From Candidatus Versatilivorator sp. (GTDB lineage Bacteria > Acidobacteriota > Terriglobia > Versatilivoradales > Versatilivoraceae): a stretch of 64,000 bases of DNA. Both the position numbers and the translations under genes were made by a program. The DNA lies in contig OZ253547.1 in assembly GCA_965262635.1 (NCBI GenBank), positions 3,445,514 through 3,509,513 on the forward strand. The letters run 5' to 3'. This document shows positions 1,540-36,620 of this stretch, in pieces; the stretch's first letter is position 1; each line of letters opens with the position of its first letter. Below the pieces are notes generated by a model. The model was given only the letters and a program-made list of their open reading frames with translations. It ran no database searches and was not told the origin of the DNA.

Positions 1540-1623
1540 CCATTCCCGGCAAAGATCCCGCTGCCGCATTTTGCAAAAGGCTCATCTCTTTCTCTATCTT
1601 GGCGCCATCGGAGAATCTCAAGT

Positions 1624-2253
1624 GTAGAAGTTGGTAGAGAGAAAGAACTCCCGACCAAGAGAGATTTGGGAAAGTGGTACGGCTGGCTCGAGAGCTATGA
1701 ATCTGTGAAGACATACATCGAGAACCACCCTGAACTTGAACGGGAAGCCGTAAGGATTATCAAGTCCCAGTGCCCTGTCTACGATGACATCCCGTCATAC
1801 CCATACGGAAGATTCTCTGCTCCTACCCCGAAACAAGGCAAGCCCCAAGAATGGCATTGCACGTGGAGGCTCTTGCGAAGGGACCGCCACTTCCCCCTGA
1901 CTTGTGGGTTTACTCTTATTGGAGGGGGAGCACCTGGGGAAAGCTGGCACAGGATAGAGCCCACTGTCGAGAAAGCGATTAAGGACTACAAGAAGAAGCT
2001 CAAACTAGCAGAGGGCCAGCACCCCGAGTTGCCGTGTGTTCCTCTAATCCTTTTCGTAGACGGTCGGACGGTTGGTCACAATTTGGATAAAGACGATCTG
2101 GACTTCGCATTTGCACGGGGAGTGTGGAAGGGCGGGCCCTCCAAGAACTATCCTAAGATACCGCTGGGAGTGGTCGTGTTAGGAACTCCTATGCGTGGTT
2201 GGAGCCAAAGTGGTAGGGATATGGTCGGGGACTTCATCCACAACCCCTATTGA
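1624..2253 (+). CDS. hypothetical protein (low-GC, start codon unresolved)
   Basis: Long open frame ending at 2253, GC about 50% against ~63% background. The N-terminal part of the predicted ORF is repeat-derived and no ATG is in frame; candidate TTG/GTG starts lie near 1657-1700. Confidence 0.35.
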   Translation, partial: VEVGREKELPTKRDLGKWYGWLESYESVKTYIENHPELEREAVRIIKSQCPVYDDIPSYPYGRFSAPTPKQGKPQEWHCTWRLLRRDRHFPLTCGFTLIGGGAPGESWHRIEPTVEKAIKDYKKKLKLAEGQHPELPCVPLILFVDGRTVGHNLDKDDLDFAFARGVWKGGPSKNYPKIPLGVVVLGTPMRGWSQSGRDMVGDFIHNPY

Positions 2254-2819
2254 GAGGACTAGTTTTCCTCCTGTTATCAACCCTCTGTTACGAACCCACA
2301 GGCTTCGGGATTGGAGCGTCGTGAATACTCTCCAGCAGGTTGAAAAGGGACCTGAGTAGCAATGAGCTAGTCAGTGTGCCGGAGGGCATCTTCTCCGGCC
2401 TCTCCTCCCTGGAATATCTCGTGCTCAATAACAACCCAGCATCTCCCCTACCTATCAACGTATCGTTGGAATGGGTTGATTCTGGGCGATTCCAGGCCAG
2501 AGTGCCTACTGGTGCGCCCTTTGGGATCCGTCTTCCGATAACTGTAATTACCGGATTTTCTCCGGAAAAAGGGGAGGATGTCGAGGTTTTGACGTTTCTC
2601 TCGGGAGCCGTGGATCTGCCCCCCTTACACTTCTCTATCGGACCCGATCGACTCCGAGATCCCGGCAGATCTTTCGAGCCAGAACGTCGTCGATTTCCCG
2701 GTGGCGCGGAATGGCAGAACGCCGATCACCGCGATCATTTCGCCACCACGAGTGTCGGCCCCCTTCACGGATCAGTTAGCAGCCCTGCCCTCGAAGGTGT
2801 CTCAATAGGTCAATCCGCT

Positions 2820-3029
2820 TCATGCAACAACGACCTTCTCCTCAAAGTAGTCGTCTCCCGCAGCGGCCAAGGCGTCCTGACGGTTGAGTTCAAGTGCTTC
2901 GGAGAGCGTTTCGGCAAGGCTTTGCGTCAACTCCTCATGCGTGCGTTCCTGGCAATTCACGCCGGGGACTTCCTCAATCCAGCCGATCCACCACTTACCG
3001 CGATGCTTCACGATGGCCGTGTATTCCAT
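2820..3029 (-). CDS. hicB: HicB-family antitoxin (UPF0150), apparently orphan
   Basis: 70 aa from internal ATG (rc of 3027-3029): MEYTAIVKHRGKWWIGWIEEVPGVNCQERTHEELTQSLAETLSEALELNRQ... matches the HicB N-terminal fold signature. No intact hicA upstream. Confidence 0.7.
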   Translation of the reverse strand: MEYTAIVKHRGKWWIGWIEEVPGVNCQERTHEELTQSLAETLSEALELNRQDALAAAGDDYFEEKVVVA

Positions 3030-3461
3030 ATTCGCTCCTTCTTTCCCTTTTCCTGCTCGTCCGGGCCAAGACCGACCCGGGCAGGGGTTCCCAGCGACAC
3101 TACGGGCAATGTGGTGAAGATGCCGTTCGCCACATCCATTTCTATGGCGACTCCGGTGAACTTCTGCTGACCTCACGGAGCCGTGCAGCGGGCGTACCCG
3201 GTGAAGTCCGCAGTGAGGCTGTCGCCACACATCTCGTGGATGAACTTGGCATCCTGTCCATTGGCCGGCAGAGCAAGAGTGAACGGCGCGTCGCCCAAGG
3301 CGACTCTTTGGCATCGGAATGTTTCAGTCCAATTCGTTACGAGCCTTTTGCAAAATTCGGAGTCACGCGATCCTTATTCAGATCGAGCGTTTTTTCTCCC
3401 GAGTCCGTCAACGATCAGGTGACACTGAACCCGTTTGCCGTCTGAAACTCAATGGCCACAA

Positions 3462-3583
3462 AAGGCACAACAACACAAAAAGAACCATCCGATCGGCAAG
3501 ACTCGAAATCAAGAAACTCGTTTTGTGACTTTTGTGCTTTTTGTGGTTTCTGTTGCCTCTTGTGCTTTTTGTGGCGAATGCCG
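3462..3583. repeat. Second copy of the CACAAAAAG-type inverted-repeat element (3462-3490 plus strand; 3529-3554 and 3566-3583 reverse complement)
   Basis: Shares terminal motif GAATGGCCACAAAAGGCACAA with the element at 1365-1539. Confidence 0.6.
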
Positions 3584-3743
3584 GAGCCTGCAGCACATCA
3601 CCTTTGCCGCCTCAATCTCATGCCCGATTCCGAATTTTGAAAAACGCTCCGTTACCAATTTAATCCATGTACCAATGCGGAGGGAAGAGATGAATCTCTT
3701 TACTTCAAGAGGATTTTTCCCGTTGCTTTGCCTCTGTATCGGT

Positions 3744-12700: not shown

Positions 12701-12734
12701 CCAGTGCCCCCTGCTGCTTCATGGCTCGCGACCC

Positions 12735-13145
12735 TGCCCTGCCGTGCGGATGATTCGAGGGAAAAAACCCAATCGTCAATAAAGACGAACCACGAATGAA
12801 CACGAATAAACACAAATAGACAAGAAAACACATGGACCTCCTTCAACGACAAACGGCACCAAAATGCTTCTGCAACTTTGTTACCTTGGTTTGACTTCGT
12901 GTCCTTCTTAGATAACCCCTCGATATCGGTTGTCGCACCCCCCAATCAACAATTCATCAATCAGTTTATTGGTGTTCATTCGTGTCCATTCGTGGTTCGC
13001 CGTTTTCCTTTGTGGATAACTCTTATCGGTCCTTGTTGCGTGTGTGGAAAACTCTTCCCCCTCCACAACCTTTGGCGGATCCCTCTTGAGCCTTCTCCAA
13101 CCCCTTAGTGGCCCTTCGTCGTTCTTCGTGCCCCTTCGTGGATAT
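12735..13145. repeat. Modular noncoding repeat cluster, family A locus 1 (R1 module 12735-12880 in reverse orientation; inverted partial R1 12960-13010; R2/R3 modules 13060-13145)
   Basis: Near-identical to modules at 35722-36620 and 33430-33709. R3 is a 10-13-bp CACGAAGGG(G/C) iteration and R2 is CTAAGGGGTTGGAGAAGGCTCAAGAGGGATCCGCCAAAGG. Confidence 0.7.
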
Positions 13146-13186
13146 CTTTTTTCCTTCATTGCTTGTTGGATTAATGCACGGCCGAC

Positions 13187-19739: not shown

Positions 19740-19823
19740 CTCAGCAAACCTCTCGACCCGAGGGGCAACAAAGGCCCCTAACCACGCCGCCGCCAAGGCG
19801 GGGCGGCCGCTGCCGCTGATATT

Positions 19824-20255
19824 GACTCACGGGGGGCGGTGTTTGCCCCCCACCGGCTCGACTGCGGGCTCCGCCCTGGTCTCGCCGACTCCCCCTTGAG
19901 GGGCGAGTGATCTTGAGGCCTGCACAAGGCGCTCGAGTATCACTCCCCCCTTGAGGGGGAGTCGCAGAAGCCGAGCCATCAGGCGAAGGCTGATGCGGTG
20001 GGGGGGCCAACCAATACCCGCCGCCTTGCCCGGGCCAGCTGACAGTCACTCACGGGACGCCGCGTTTGCCCCCCCCCACCGGCTCGACTGCGGGCTTCGC
20101 CCTGGTCTCACCGACTCCCCCTCCAGGGGGGAGTGATCTTGAGGCTTGCATTAGGCGCTCGGGTACTCCCCCCCTGAGGGGAAATCGCAGAAGCCGAGCC
20201 GCCAGGCGAAGGCTGATGCGGTGGGGGGTGGACGCCGGGCCGCCAGGGTGTTGAA
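19824..20255. repeat. Two tandem copies (~218 bp each) of a GC-rich repeat, family B. Each copy has an internal ~30-bp imperfect palindrome (CGACTCCCCCTTGAGGGG...CCCCTTGAGGGGGAGTCG)
   Basis: Copy 1 is 19824-20041 and copy 2 is 20042-20255. A third partial inverted copy lies at 36140-36215. Confidence 0.75.
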
Positions 20256-33429: not shown

Positions 33430-33709
33430 CGAGGTCACGAAATTATGTTCCCGGCGTTCGGTCTCGGCGTCGGGTATGAGTAGATTCTTGATTTACATGG
33501 ATGGACAGGATAGACAGGATGTTTTGTCGCCAACCGGCTTCTCCCGAAAGAGTCCTTGCTCCGGAAAAGCCACAACGATCCTCTCGAATGATGCGCTCCG
33601 TCGTGTGGGGCGGGGGCCGGACTTGCCTGAAACACTTGAGCGTTATCCGCAAAGGACAAAAAAAATATCCACGAAGGGGCACGAAGGACCACGAAGGGCC
33701 ACTAAGGGG
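33430..33709. repeat. Family A repeat locus 2 (partial R1 33560-33630; R3 iterations 33664-33709), left half of a repeat array split by the IS1634 insertion
   Basis: CCACGAAGGGGCACGAAGGACCACGAAGGGCCACTAAGGGG matches reverse complement of 13100-13145. Confidence 0.65.
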
Positions 33710-35721
33710 AACTTCATTAAACAAAAAGCGAGCTAACACCAGGTAAGTGCCTGTATTCATGGGACATATACGTATGTCGAGGTGATAAAGGGCTGTATTA
33801 TTGTTGCCATGTATTAAAAGATATGGCATAGTTCATTGAACTTATATACAATATCTTGTGTTGCATATGATGTTGCCATGTACCGGGTGCCGCCATGTCC
33901 ATCCGCGTCCACGTTATCCCCAACCGCTCCAGCCCTCCTGCCGTCCTCCTCAGAAAAACTTGGCGCGAGGGGAAACGAATCCGGCGACAGACCCTCGCCA
34001 ACCTTTCGAAAGTCCCCAAACCGGTCGTCGACGCCATCCGCGCTTTCCTCCAAGGCGGCGTCGTCTTTGAAACCCTCGACGATGCCGCCGCCATCCGAAG
34101 GTCGCTGCCACACGGGCATGTGGCGGCCCTGCTCGGCCTGGCGACCCAACTCGGTCTTCCCCGCATCCTCAACCGAAAGCCCTGCCGCCAACGTGACCTC
34201 GCACTGGCCGCCGTCATCGCACGCCTCATCCACCCGGCCTCGAAGCTCGCCACCGCCAGGGCCTTGTCCCCCGAGACCGCCGACAGCAGCCTCGGGGTCC
34301 TGCTCGGCCTCGGGGGCGTCTCTGGAAACGAGCTGCTCGACATGCTCGACTGGCTCAGCAACCGCCAACCCTGGATCGAACAAAGTCTTTCCCGCAGGCA
34401 TCTTCACAACACCACCCTGATCCTCTACGACGTGACCTCGACCTACCTCGAGGGGCAGCAATGCCCGTTGGCCGCCTTCGGTCACAACCGCGACGGAAAG
34501 AAGGGGAAAAAGCAGATGGTCTTCGGCCTGCTCTGCGCCGCTGACGGCTGTCCGGTCGCGGTCGAAGTCTTCCCCGGCAACACCGCCGACCCGACCACGC
34601 TGGCCGCCCAGGTCCGCAAGATCCGGGACCGCTTCGGGGTCCGCCGGGTGGCCCTGGTGGGCGACCGCGGCATGATCACCTCCGCACGCATCCGCACCGA
34701 TCTGTTACCGGTCGGCCTGGACTGGATCTCGGCCCTGCGCACGGTCGACCTCCGCAAACTGCTGAAGGCCCCCAGGGGTAATCCTGCCGGGGCGCCCCTG
34801 CGTCCCGAGGCACTGGTCCCCGACACGGTGGCCGAAATCCTCAGCCCCGAGTTCCCCGGCGAACGCCTCCTGGTCTGCTTCAACCCGCGGCTGCGCCAGC
34901 AACGCGCCCGCAAGCGCGAGGATCTGCTGCGGGCCACCGAAGCCACCCTCGCAAAGATCGCCGCGGCCGCCCGCAAGCACAGGCCCGGGCCAGAGAACCG
35001 AGACCGGACCCTGCAGTCCCTCGGCAGACAGGCCCACCGGCATAAGGTGGAGAAACACTTCGACCTCACCGTCACCGATGACGATCTGCAGTGGTCCCGC
35101 AACCGGGAGAAGATCAAGGCCGAGGCACGCCTGGACGGTATCTACGTCATCCGGACCAATCTCGACACCGCAGCCATCGACACCCACGCGGCAGTGGCGG
35201 CCTACAAGAGCCTCTCGCAGGTCGAACGGGCCTTTCGTTCGATGAAGATGACCCGGCTCCACGTGCGCCCGGTCTTCGTCTACACCGAACAGCACGTGCT
35301 CGGGCATGTGTTCCTCTGCCTGCTGGCCTGGTACCTGGAATGGCACCTGCGCCGGCGTCTGGCACCCTTGCTGTTCGAGGATGAGGCCCCTCCGGTGCGG
35401 GACTCACCCGTGCAAAAGGCCGAACCGTCGCAGCAAGCCAAGGCGAAGGCCGCCACCAAGAGAACCCCCGACGGCGATCCGGTGCACAGTGTCACGACGC
35501 TGCTCAATGATCTGGCCACCGTGACCCTCAATGAGGTCACGCTCCCCGGACATCCCGACAGTGCCTTCCCCCTGGTGACGAAATCGACGCCACTGCAGGC
35601 CAAGGTGTTCGCTTTACTGAAAATCGATCCCGAGGCAGCTGTTGCCATAAACAGGGCAGGTTGATTTTGAATAAACTCCCTTTTTACAACTAAATACGCC
35701 TATTTTGCTCGTGAAGTTCCG
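33710..35721 (+). mobile_element. IS1634-family insertion sequence (~2.0 kb) with 9-bp target-site duplication ACTAAGGGG (33701-33709 / 35722-35730)
   Basis: Joining the flanks reproduces exactly the uninterrupted paralogous repeat CCACTAAGGGGTTGGAGAAGG found in reverse orientation at 13091-13111. Termini GGAACTTCA.../...TGAAGTTCC(G) are inverted. Confidence 0.8.
33895..35664 (+). CDS. IS1634-family (IS4-like) DDE transposase
   Basis: 589 aa; YDVTSTYLEG...GHNRDGKKGKKQMVFGLL block and DDE region typical of IS1634 transposases. Confidence 0.85.
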   Translation: MSIRVHVIPNRSSPPAVLLRKTWREGKRIRRQTLANLSKVPKPVVDAIRAFLQGGVVFETLDDAAAIRRSLPHGHVAALLGLATQLGLPRILNRKPCRQRDLALAAVIARLIHPASKLATARALSPETADSSLGVLLGLGGVSGNELLDMLDWLSNRQPWIEQSLSRRHLHNTTLILYDVTSTYLEGQQCPLAAFGHNRDGKKGKKQMVFGLLCAADGCPVAVEVFPGNTADPTTLAAQVRKIRDRFGVRRVALVGDRGMITSARIRTDLLPVGLDWISALRTVDLRKLLKAPRGNPAGAPLRPEALVPDTVAEILSPEFPGERLLVCFNPRLRQQRARKREDLLRATEATLAKIAAAARKHRPGPENRDRTLQSLGRQAHRHKVEKHFDLTVTDDDLQWSRNREKIKAEARLDGIYVIRTNLDTAAIDTHAAVAAYKSLSQVERAFRSMKMTRLHVRPVFVYTEQHVLGHVFLCLLAWYLEWHLRRRLAPLLFEDEAPPVRDSPVQKAEPSQQAKAKAATKRTPDGDPVHSVTTLLNDLATVTLNEVTLPGHPDSAFPLVTKSTPLQAKVFALLKIDPEAAVAINRAG

Positions 35722-36620
35722 ACTAAGGGGTTGGAGAAGGCTCAAGAGGGATCCGCCAAAGGTCGGGAAGGGGGAATAGATTTCCACGAAGGGCGCTAAA
35801 GTATCTGTTAAGGGGGCAAGAGATTAATCCGCGAAGGGACTCTAAGGGGTTGGAAAAGACTCGAAAGGGGTCCGTGAAGGGCTACGAAGAAAGACACTAA
35901 GGGGGAAAAGTTATCCACGAAGGGCACGAAGTCACACCCAGGGCGCAAAATTGCAGTAGCATTTTGGCACCGCTTGTCGTTGAAGTAGGTCTATCTGTCT
36001 TCGTGGCTATTCATGTCCATTCGTGGTTCGTCTTCATGAACGATCGGCCGTTTTTCCTCGAATGATCCTCACGGCATGGCGGGGGCCGGCTCGCCGGCAA
36101 ACGGGAGTTTCCCAAAGGGTGCACGTCGGCTTTCTGAGAACTCGCCCGGCGCCCACCCCCCACCGCATCAGCCTTCGCCTGACGGCTCGGCTTCTGCGAC
36201 TCCCCCTCAAGGGGGGAGTGATTGCCCTGGGAGCGCGGGCGTCCCGCCCGCATCCTGTCCCTTTCCCCGCCGCTGAGCTTCAGTGCGATGCTGCAGGCAG
36301 CCACCCTGTCGGCGGGAACAGCAGCGGCTAGGCCGAAGGAGAGCCATGGCGCCGTTCCCGGTTGATCCAAGTGGGGGAGATGGCCCAGGCTGTGCCAGGC
36401 TTGGTGCGGGCGGGACGCCCGCGCTCCCAGGAAGCCTTCATCCCATGACCTCGTCACTCCAAGGGCACCAAATGGCAGACGCATTTTGGTGCCACTTGTC
36501 GTTGAAGGAGGTCCATCTCTCTTCTGGTCTATTTGTGTTTATTCGTGTCCATTCGTGGTTCGTCTTCATAAACAATCGGCCGTTTTTCCTCGAATGATCC
36601 GCACGGCAGGGCGGGGGCGC
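35722..36620. repeat. Family A repeat locus 3: R2/R3 modules 35722-35930; two R1 copies 35925-36075 and 36465-36615; includes a family-B fragment 36140-36215
   Basis: Direct comparison with 12735-13145 and 19824-20255. Confidence 0.7.

Follow-up and report, generated by a model that had tools for sequence, protein, structure and literature searches.

Modular intergenic repeats in a Candidatus Versatilivorator genome and the decamer arrays that they share with GxxExxY cassettes

What kind of element is the noncoding repeat that recurs between the genes of a 64,000-nucleotide (nt) stretch of a Candidatus Versatilivorator genome (contig OZ253547.1, positions 3,445,514 to 3,509,513; here called the window, in whose coordinates all positions are given)? 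The original prediction, made from the letters alone, described a family of three modules (family A; R1, R2, and R3) at 12735-13145, 33430-33709, and 35722-36620, and offered three readings: elements like the repetitive extragenic palindromes (REPs) and bacterial interspersed mosaic elements (BIMEs), small RNA genes, or protein-binding arrays. We found that family A consists of dispersed, extragenic, modular, and strand-indifferent repeats of variable copy number, and that the arrays of 10-bp units in its modules are identical to those that bound small cassettes with a GxxExxY gene elsewhere in bacteria. With moderate confidence, we read the family as derivatives of such array-bounded cassettes that lack an open reading frame (ORF), resemble miniature inverted-repeat transposable elements (MITEs), and have taken up lineage-specific filler, that is, as selfish noncoding DNA.

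Modules of family A and their dispersal

Alignments of the R1, R2, and R3 copies confirmed that the family is real and beyond chance. R1 is 168 nt long, with 84% identity between 12728-12895 on the minus strand and 36453-36620 on the plus strand, and a third copy at 35931-36086 is ~80 to 82% identical. A 66-nt stretch containing R2 is shared at 92% between 13044-13109 and 35722-35787 (80% for a second R2 copy, 35842-35881), and a 52-nt stretch containing R3 is shared at 94% between 13101-13152 and 33658-33709. The pattern CACGAAGGN{1,2}CACGAAG, i.e., two adjacent CACGAAGG units, occurred four times in the window versus 0.00 expected. In locus 1 (12735-13145), R3 continues directly into R2 as CCACTAAGGGGTTGGAGAAGGCTC.

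The three loci of the original prediction are in fact two, one of which is divided into loci 2 and 3 by an IS1634-family insertion sequence (IS). Its ORF (33895-35664) encodes a DDE transposase (Pfam DDE_Tnp_1; IS1634-family model NF033559, 313 bits). A target duplication of 7 to 9 bp, ACTAAGG(GG), stands at 33701-33709 and 35722-35730; the left junction joins CCACTAAGGGG to AACTTCATT, the right one joins GTGAAGTTCCG to ACTAAGGGGTTGGAG, and the insertion point is exactly the R3/R2 junction. When 33710-35721 was removed in silico, locus 1 aligned across the junction over 118 nt with 85.6% identity. The orthologous region in a relative whose flanking genes are 97.5% identical (L018) has no IS, and no copy of it was found in any of the fetched blocks described below. 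Once the IS is taken out, the two loci have the order R3-R2-...-R1 in common, so the module order is not variable, contrary to the original prediction. The R1 sequence in locus 2 is limited to its final ~40 nt (33580-33620). The original prediction was correct about the intergenic position: locus 1 lies between convergent genes (a DUF1501 gene and a pyridoxal phosphate enzyme gene) and the restored locus 2+3 between divergent ones (an M20 peptidase gene and a family-9 glycosyltransferase gene). Together, ~1.4 kb of the intergenic sequence of the window consists of repeats.

R1 copies had also been said to lie inverted ~150 bp apart in locus 1. The array part of R1 alone, not the whole unit, is inverted there: two arms of 41 nt (12781-12821 and 12964-13004) match at 85% and lie 142 nt apart. 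The long hairpin that had been suggested for them is predicted, with a stem of ~30 bp (DNA fold of -42.6 kcal/mol, z = -5.5). The features are as follows.

12730-12761, minus strand: R1 tail of locus 1, a degenerate forward-type unit, CCTCGAATCATCC, then the GC-rich hairpin CCGCAC-GGCA-GGGCAG
12774-12789, minus strand: small hairpin TCGTC-TTTATT-GACGA between array and tail, a pairing without covariation support
12784-12821, minus strand: R1 decamer array of reverse type, minus-strand sequence GTCTATTTGTGTTTATTCGTGTTCATTCGTGGTTCGTC, with terminus GGTTC
12822-12895, minus strand: R1 head, a lineage-specific inner segment with the potential hairpin GGCACCAAA...TTTGGTGCC
12896-12916, minus strand: two forward-type units, TTATCTAAGAAGGACACGAAG, that open R1, with a like junction in block L055 and at 35911-35931
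12964-13004, minus strand: forward-type decamer array, inverted partner of 12784-12821, read on the minus strand as CGAACCACGAATGGACACGAATGAACACCAATAAAC
13044-13100, minus strand: R2 module of locus 1 (~16 R2 copies in the fetched blocks)
13101-13152, minus strand: R3 of locus 1, forward-type array ATATCCACGAAGGGGCACGAAGAACGACGAAGGGCCACTAAGGGG plus A-run (~60 R3 copies in the fetched blocks)
33580-33620, plus strand: solo R1 tail of locus 2
33658-33709, plus strand: A-run and R3 forward array of locus 2, the last 9 nt (33701-33709) being the left target duplication of the IS
33710-35721, plus strand: IS1634-family insertion sequence, foreign to family A, with the 589-amino-acid transposase ORF
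35722-35762, plus strand: R2 module that directly follows R3 once the IS is removed, 35722-35730 being the right target duplication copy
35785-35931, plus strand: more forward-type units and the second R2, ending in TTATCCACGAAGGGCACGAAG, which opens the R1b copy
35931-36086, plus strand: R1b, with head, reverse array shorter by one 10-bp unit, small hairpin, and tail (alignment and profile search)
36453-36620, plus strand: R1a, with head, reverse array (36526-36564), small hairpin, and tail (alignment and profile search)

The genome-wide copy count proposed with the original prediction was carried out on a collection of species-representative genomes and showed the family to be dispersed. A strict R1 pattern (CATTCGTGGTTCGTC, 15 to 35 nt, CCTCGAAT) matched 86 blocks in ~10 genomes, all of them metagenome-assembled genomes named Candidatus Versatilivorator, Versatilivoraceae, or unclassified Acidobacteriota/Terriglobia, and a single 5.99-Mb contig contributed at least 28 of the 80 blocks listed. 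Part of the strict pattern falls in the tail, which is specific to the lineage; how widely the bare array is distributed among taxa is judged from the metagenome contigs and the names of GxxExxY homologues given below. A profile search of the blocks returned 163 R1 matches, including 62 of full length, 24 of the tail only, and 21 of the array only. The array-only matches typically lie inverted ~70 nt upstream of a full R1, so the arrangement of locus 1 is a recurrent architecture, and forward/reverse pairing like that of locus 1 recurred at ~190-nt spacing in at least 15 other blocks. Nearly all R1 matches (151/163) lie outside called genes. Across the blocks, they occupy tandem, convergent, and divergent intergenic regions alike, and in tandem regions they showed no orientation bias (19 on the gene strand, 15 on the opposite strand). 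No association of the arrays with a gene class or gene orientation was seen.

Decamer arrays and their link to GxxExxY cassettes

R3 (CCACGAAGGGG CACGAAGGAC CACGAAGGGC) and the center of R1 (TATTCGTGTC CATTCGTGG TTCG) are built from one 10-bp unit in opposite orientations. In forward orientation the array reads (CACGAA[T/G]NNN)n from GAACC onward; in reverse orientation it is complementary to this and terminates in GGTTC. The bare array pattern is TTCGTGTYCATTCGTGGTTC. R1 copies differ in length by entire 10-bp units. In 17 copies that do not match the search pattern, CATTCGTGGTTC was ~100% conserved, compared with 60 to 90% elsewhere. The 21-mer TTCGTGTYCATTCGTGGTTCG occurred in more than 120 metagenome contigs among the matches listed (labelled L087-L206), at GC contents of 42 to 73% and with flanks that are unrelated on both sides. 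Since the array alone is shared with these contigs, R1 as a whole is lineage specific, and the same holds for the head, whose anchor had 0 matches in the Joint Genome Institute metagenomes. Carriage by phages or plasmids was considered and rejected, with 0 array matches in viral contigs. In the literature, array strings appeared only as unrelated primers, and no mention of the genus Versatilivorator was found.

The arrays have an outward polarity. Among adjacent termini in the listed metagenome contigs, the forward terminus AACCACGAA was followed by the reverse terminus TTCGTGGTT 38 times, versus 4 times for the opposite order, at spacings of 41 to 480 nt between forward and reverse termini. 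Forward units were enriched solely upstream of the reverse terminus, in the Versatilivoraceae blocks as in the metagenome contigs (~1.8 versus 0.1 and ~1.3 versus 0.25 per terminus, respectively). Thus, every R1 forms one outward-facing pair with the R3-type units ahead of it; locus 1 includes a second, nested forward array. At the three variable unit positions, the arms of a pair were not more complementary than arms of different elements, so that selection for hairpin complementarity was not seen there, and in Versatilivoraceae the two arms of a pair are consistently unlike each other. This asymmetry favors distinct left and right ends that a protein recognizes unit by unit over a perfect hairpin kept by selection.

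When the ORFs near the arrays were clustered, one recurrent family emerged, from six unrelated metagenome contigs: GxxExxY (TIGR04256, 128 bits; Pfam PDDEXK_3, with the PD-(D/E)XK nuclease fold). The GxxExxY genes enclosed by longer array pairs encode 123 to 127 amino acids. In two contigs (L145 and L187), a gene for 123 amino acids stands between a forward and a reverse array in a cassette of ~420 to 490 bp, and the first 22 nt of the locus 1 forward array (CGAACCACGAATGGACACGAAT) are the same as in the L145 cassette. Close homologues lie in cassettes of like build: one (L210) follows the stop codon of a methylase gene and precedes the ribosome-binding site of the gene after it, and another (L220) separates two genes with B12-binding domains. 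In a 3.5-Mb contig (L218, 560-1784), an intact GxxExxY cassette stands in a tandem row with several ~180-nt copies that have internal deletions; the members are 5 to 20 nt apart, and forward and reverse arrays bound every one of them. Miniature elements classically arise from ORF-bearing ones in this way. The array itself can encode the start of the protein: GAACCACGAATGGACACGAATAAACACGAA translates to EPRMDTNKHE, and 77 of the best 120 of 7439 GxxExxY homologues (E ≤ 1e-20) start with M[DN]TNxHE or a closely similar string. The top homologues are 75 to 80% identical and carry the names Pseudomonadota, Kiritimatiellia, Verrucomicrobiota, Desulfuromonas, and Francisellaceae. The activity of GxxExxY is listed as "Unknown," with multiple transfers (PMC3424549), and none of the listed titles or abstracts of papers that name GxxExxY was about repeats.

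These observations can be arranged into one route. In this reading, R3 and the R1 array are the left and right end types of a single element, with termini facing outward and 40 to 480 nt between them. Elsewhere in bacteria, such arrays bound a cassette with one small GxxExxY gene, and gene-less copies with internal deletions adjoin intact ones; the window copies would be gene-less derivatives that acquired the lineage-specific head, R2, and tail as filler. Unit slippage, tandem amplification, and module exchange at short repeats would have remodeled them later, and further insertions followed, the IS1634 element in the window and another MITE in a relative. We infer that the arrays are ends recognized by a protein and used for spread, that an enzyme acting in trans, possibly GxxExxY, moves them, and that family A has no host function; the mode of insertion and the mobilizing enzyme are inferred in the same manner.

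Several points weigh against this reading. No target-site duplication was seen at the array-bounded elements whose flanks were read or at a ~165-nt insertion/deletion (indel) described below, although the element ends are uncertain by 1 to 2 nt, so that a duplication of 1 to 2 bp could escape. Nor did we find a clean pair of filled and empty sites for one array-bounded unit; presence or absence was seen at orthologous sites at the level of modules, and the one clean insertion belongs to another element, MITE-B. Since copies are retained at orthologous sites, they can seldom have moved recently. Part of the array served to collect the blocks, which biases its invariance in the R1 alignment and inflates its apparent conservation. 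The 10-bp phasing and the conservation across phyla would equally suit a host protein, and GxxExxY could be cargo, not the mobilizing enzyme. Finally, tblastn found no GxxExxY gene in the window or in the 86 Versatilivoraceae blocks (~690 kb), and no ORF-bearing cassette of another kind was present there, so the source of the enzyme in Versatilivoraceae is unproven. Forward and reverse arrays in these blocks lie 109 to 370 nt apart except for spacings of 1.5 and 6 kb, which contain no transposase; an autonomous element was sought inside the lineage blocks and not found.

Sibling arrays with the same 10-bp build and a ...GTGGTT terminus, but with the cores ATCTGTG, ATCCGTG, and TTTCGCG, occur near arrays with the ATTCGTG core (for example, in L107, L137, L156, and L178), and in L143 an array with a sibling core precedes a GxxExxY gene. 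The arrays may thus form a superfamily of more than one specificity. Four soil contigs that are related to each other (L093, L098, L138, and L162) have one orthologous gene whose ATG follows the end of the reverse array by 4 nt, with no obvious ribosome-binding site in between. Another type of decamer array, with GGATGGACAGGATAGACAGGATG and CACAGGATG units, stands at 33490-33525 of the window and at ~5640-5680 of L026; its ACAGGAUG core bears a possible resemblance to the GGA repeats of CsrA-binding RNAs.

A bolder version is possible, though we regard it as tentative and rather doubtful: array-bounded cassettes would be a widespread, undescribed class of small mobile element, built like an IVS (intervening sequence; see below) from a forward array, an optional gene for ~125 amino acids of GxxExxY, and a reverse array, in which GxxExxY reads the 10-bp units and drives their spread without target duplication. 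Family A would then be a gene-less, lineage-specific burst in sponge-associated Acidobacteria, and the sibling cores (CACAAAAGG, CACAGGAT, ATCTGTG, and ATCCGTG) would be parallel specificities.

Evolution of the copies and rival explanations

Many copies are retained at orthologous sites in genomes whose genes are 85 to 92% identical. The identity of orthologous R1 copies (78 to 91%) is close to that of third codon positions (77 to 91%), which makes their decay roughly neutral. Locus content turns over rapidly. In the close relative L018, the ortholog of locus 2+3 has another set and number of inner modules, and a ~240-bp unit is repeated twice. Two further sites with orthologs carry, upstream of AAGGAGGTCCATC and the array, one of two alternatives: R3 plus head, or an unrelated module with inverted repeats. 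Direct AAGG repeats flank the 43-nt hairpin segment of the head, which is present or absent as an indel at orthologous sites, one site shows an internal deletion, and a ~165-nt unit (linker, A-run, R3, R2-like segment, and tail) is present in one genome and absent from another, with no visible duplication. Tandem amplification has produced six ~490-bp units in L037 and, in L055, a perfect array of the 60-bp tail unit, the module that also occurs alone in the 24 tail-only matches. The repeat loci also gather other elements: the IS1634 element in the window and a 162-nt MITE in the array of a locus 1 ortholog.

The alternative that survives best, which we nevertheless consider unlikely, is that the arrays are binding sites of a host protein (nucleoid associated, replication related, or of the response-regulator type), with CACGAA cores phased at 10 bp on one helix face and kept for chromosome organization or regulation. 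The exact period with its variation in unit number, the preservation of the core in unselected copies and across very different genomes, and the lack of selection for arm complementarity all agree with it. So does the string TTATCCAC(A/G), which has 3 exact matches in the window versus 0.39 expected and which equals the DnaA-box consensus or differs from it by a single base. It often stands at the opening of forward arrays (13011-13019 and 35911-35919, and 33644-33652 with one mismatch). However, the arrays bound a horizontally spread cassette with a small gene and even encode the start of its ORF, which is hard to square with the role of an operator on the chromosome. Between 97%-identical genomes, the number of copies and the modules present vary, the decay is near neutral, and neither gene class nor gene orientation is favored. 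If the arrays bind protein, as the original prediction suggested, they are probably the recognition ends of mobile cassettes, not nucleoid sites.

An element that acts at the RNA level, like REPs or the intervening sequences (IVSs) of rRNA, is quite unlikely too. Here, cotranscribed arrays would pair, and the stem would be cut by RNase III or block exonucleases, so that the insert is tolerated in operons or mRNA stability is modulated. The predicted ~30-bp stem of locus 1 (z = -5.5) is what such an element requires, cassettes do lie inside operons, after the stop codon of one gene and before the ribosome-binding site of another, and a near-palindrome functions either way round, in agreement with the lack of strand bias. 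The architecture is also like that of the 428-nt Coxiella IVS (PMC4990558), which makes RNA-level tolerance or processing a live rival. Against this, there were no compensatory changes, complementarity at the variable positions was no higher for paired arms than for unrelated ones, the arms differ systematically in the lineage, and most R1 copies have only a diverged R3-type partner or none. A stem alone also does not account for one sequence conserved across phyla.

That R1 is a multicopy small RNA gene is very unlikely. Its length of ~170 nt, several potential hairpins, intergenic position, and many copies would suit such a gene, but the conserved secondary structure for which a test had been proposed found no support in covariation. 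RNAalifold on 61 full R1 copies gave -6.1 kcal/mol with a covariation term of -0.31. For the three explicit hairpins (head, small, and tail) in 60 distinct copies, 74.7% of the cells were paired versus 74.6% in shuffles, double changes were fewer than in shuffles, and covariation measures were below the shuffle means. The tail hairpin, CCGCCC-GGCA-GGGCGG with variants such as CTGCCC...GGGCAG, paired no better than shuffles in the same 60 copies. The Rfam search gave no match at the gathering threshold or at E ≤ 1, promoter and terminator scans of R1 were at the background level of shuffles apart from one weak 5-bp stem, no orientation rule or fixed strand was apparent, and the head is an indel at orthologous sites. 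Thus, R1 as a structured small RNA was rejected, the small RNA reading is not supported, and no RNA gene annotation is warranted there. Protein coding within the repeats was rejected as well: indels of 10-bp units break the reading frame, and no ORF with a family match lies inside the repeats in the window or the lineage blocks. The earlier view that the units are unlike clustered regularly interspaced short palindromic repeats (CRISPRs) stands, because the 60-bp tail arrays are perfect tandem repeats, 100% identical over the entire period and without unique spacers.

A simple segmental duplication within the 64-kb region, which the few copies visible inside the window might suggest and which three copies in all would have indicated, is excluded for practical purposes by the 86 blocks in ~10 genomes, the orthologous conservation, and copies that are merely 80 to 85% alike.

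Relation to known repeats, neighboring elements, and meaning

Of the three readings first offered, the REP/BIME-like one came closest, in that family A is dispersed, extragenic, modular, strand indifferent, and variable in copy number. Like REP/BIME elements of enterobacteria and REP doublets forming hairpins (REPINs) with their REP-associated tyrosine transposases (RAYTs), it forms extragenic mosaics of modular motifs in both orientations, varies in copy number between close strains, amplifies in tandem, and has a GC-rich hairpin (the tail). In contrast, REP units are single imperfect palindromes of ~35 nt that are species specific, whereas family A has a phased decamer array found across phyla. 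No RAYT-type gene turned up among the ~10 window ORFs scanned, in a scan that was not aimed at RAYT.

MITEs such as the Correia/NEMIS elements of Neisseria share with family A the short length (less than ~600 bp), the noncoding, dispersed, and intergenic character, the terminal inverted repeats (the 41-nt arms of locus 1 and the recurrent forward/reverse pairs), longer ORF-bearing relatives with the same ends, deleted beside intact copies, and nested insertions. Unlike MITEs, family A has terminal repeats of 2 to 4 tandem 10-bp units instead of unique sequence and no visible target-site duplication at array-bounded elements. The associated gene encodes a PD-(D/E)XK protein of ~125 amino acids, not a known transposase, and no ORF-bearing relative is present in the lineage blocks. 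BOX elements of Streptococcus pneumoniae (boxA-boxB(n)-boxC) are likewise modular and intergenic, with a variable number of middle modules, no ORF, and ends related in inverse orientation. However, they follow a fixed three-module grammar, whereas family A is unrelated in sequence, combines six or more types of module, and has other repeats nested in it. The short tandemly repeated repetitive (STRR) sequences of cyanobacteria also have short tandem units (7 nt compared with 10 nt) in many intergenic copies, but as plain tandem runs, not as outward-facing inverted pairs with a defined terminus.

The closest described architecture to the array-bounded cassettes is the 23S rRNA IVS. In Coxiella it measures 428 nt, has a 28-bp terminal stem and a small ORF, and is excised by RNase III (PMC4990558). 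Across Coxiella and Leptospira, IVSs with an S23p ORF resemble the GxxExxY cassettes in insert size (~430 to 490 nt), stem (~28 to 30 bp), ORF length (~120 amino acids), and horizontal spread, and they are regarded as selfish (PMC4990558). In contrast to IVSs, which occupy rRNA helices and encode a four-helix bundle, family A is intergenic, the ORF family is another one, and the window copies have no ORF. An Rfam scan found no rRNA in the window, and the family A sites lie between protein-coding genes.

The window holds further repeats. MITE-B, with the terminal inverted repeat GAGCCTTTTGCAAAATTCG, has two mutually inverted copies (1263-1583 and 3341-3649), each enclosing a forward/reverse pair of CACAAAAGG decamer arrays. 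The 162-nt MITE in the locus 1 ortholog of a close relative (L002, 2097-2258) is a MITE-B without arrays, freshly inserted into the array with the duplication TGGT. The 1.76 kb between the two window copies (1584-3340) has a GC content of ~54 to 55% versus ~62%, its ORFs had no match or a weak leucine-rich-repeat match, and a codon-based gene caller called none; this is possibly foreign DNA carried between two repeats. A 206-nt element at 36226-36431 has perfect 27-nt terminal inverted repeats (CCTGGGAGCGCGGGCGTCCCGCCCGCA), each arm a small hairpin, with ~100 copies of the arms in the fetched blocks; ahead of the R1 array, orthologous sites have either this element or R3 plus head. At 19815-20240, a ~225-bp unit in tandem duplicate adjoins tRNA-Ser, and part of it recurs at 36144-36222, inside locus 3. 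ARAGORN placed a tRNA-Leu(caa) at 19901-19985 within this repeat, with which the Rfam tRNA model disagrees; it is probably a tRNA-like fold within the repeat, not a gene.

For this genome, the result is mostly housekeeping: the DNA in question is repeat DNA, with one locus broken by an IS, and as mosaic extragenic repeats family A resembles known kinds (MITE, REP/BIME, and BOX). It also shows how rapidly the intergenic regions of sponge-symbiont genomes turn over. The link between arrays and cassettes would be more novel, if true as a mobility system. It offers a concrete hypothesis for the role of GxxExxY, a very common and uncharacterized family of small proteins, and it may account for many unexplained intergenic repeats and for spurious "hypothetical proteins" (MNTNKHE... 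and ...IRVHSWF).

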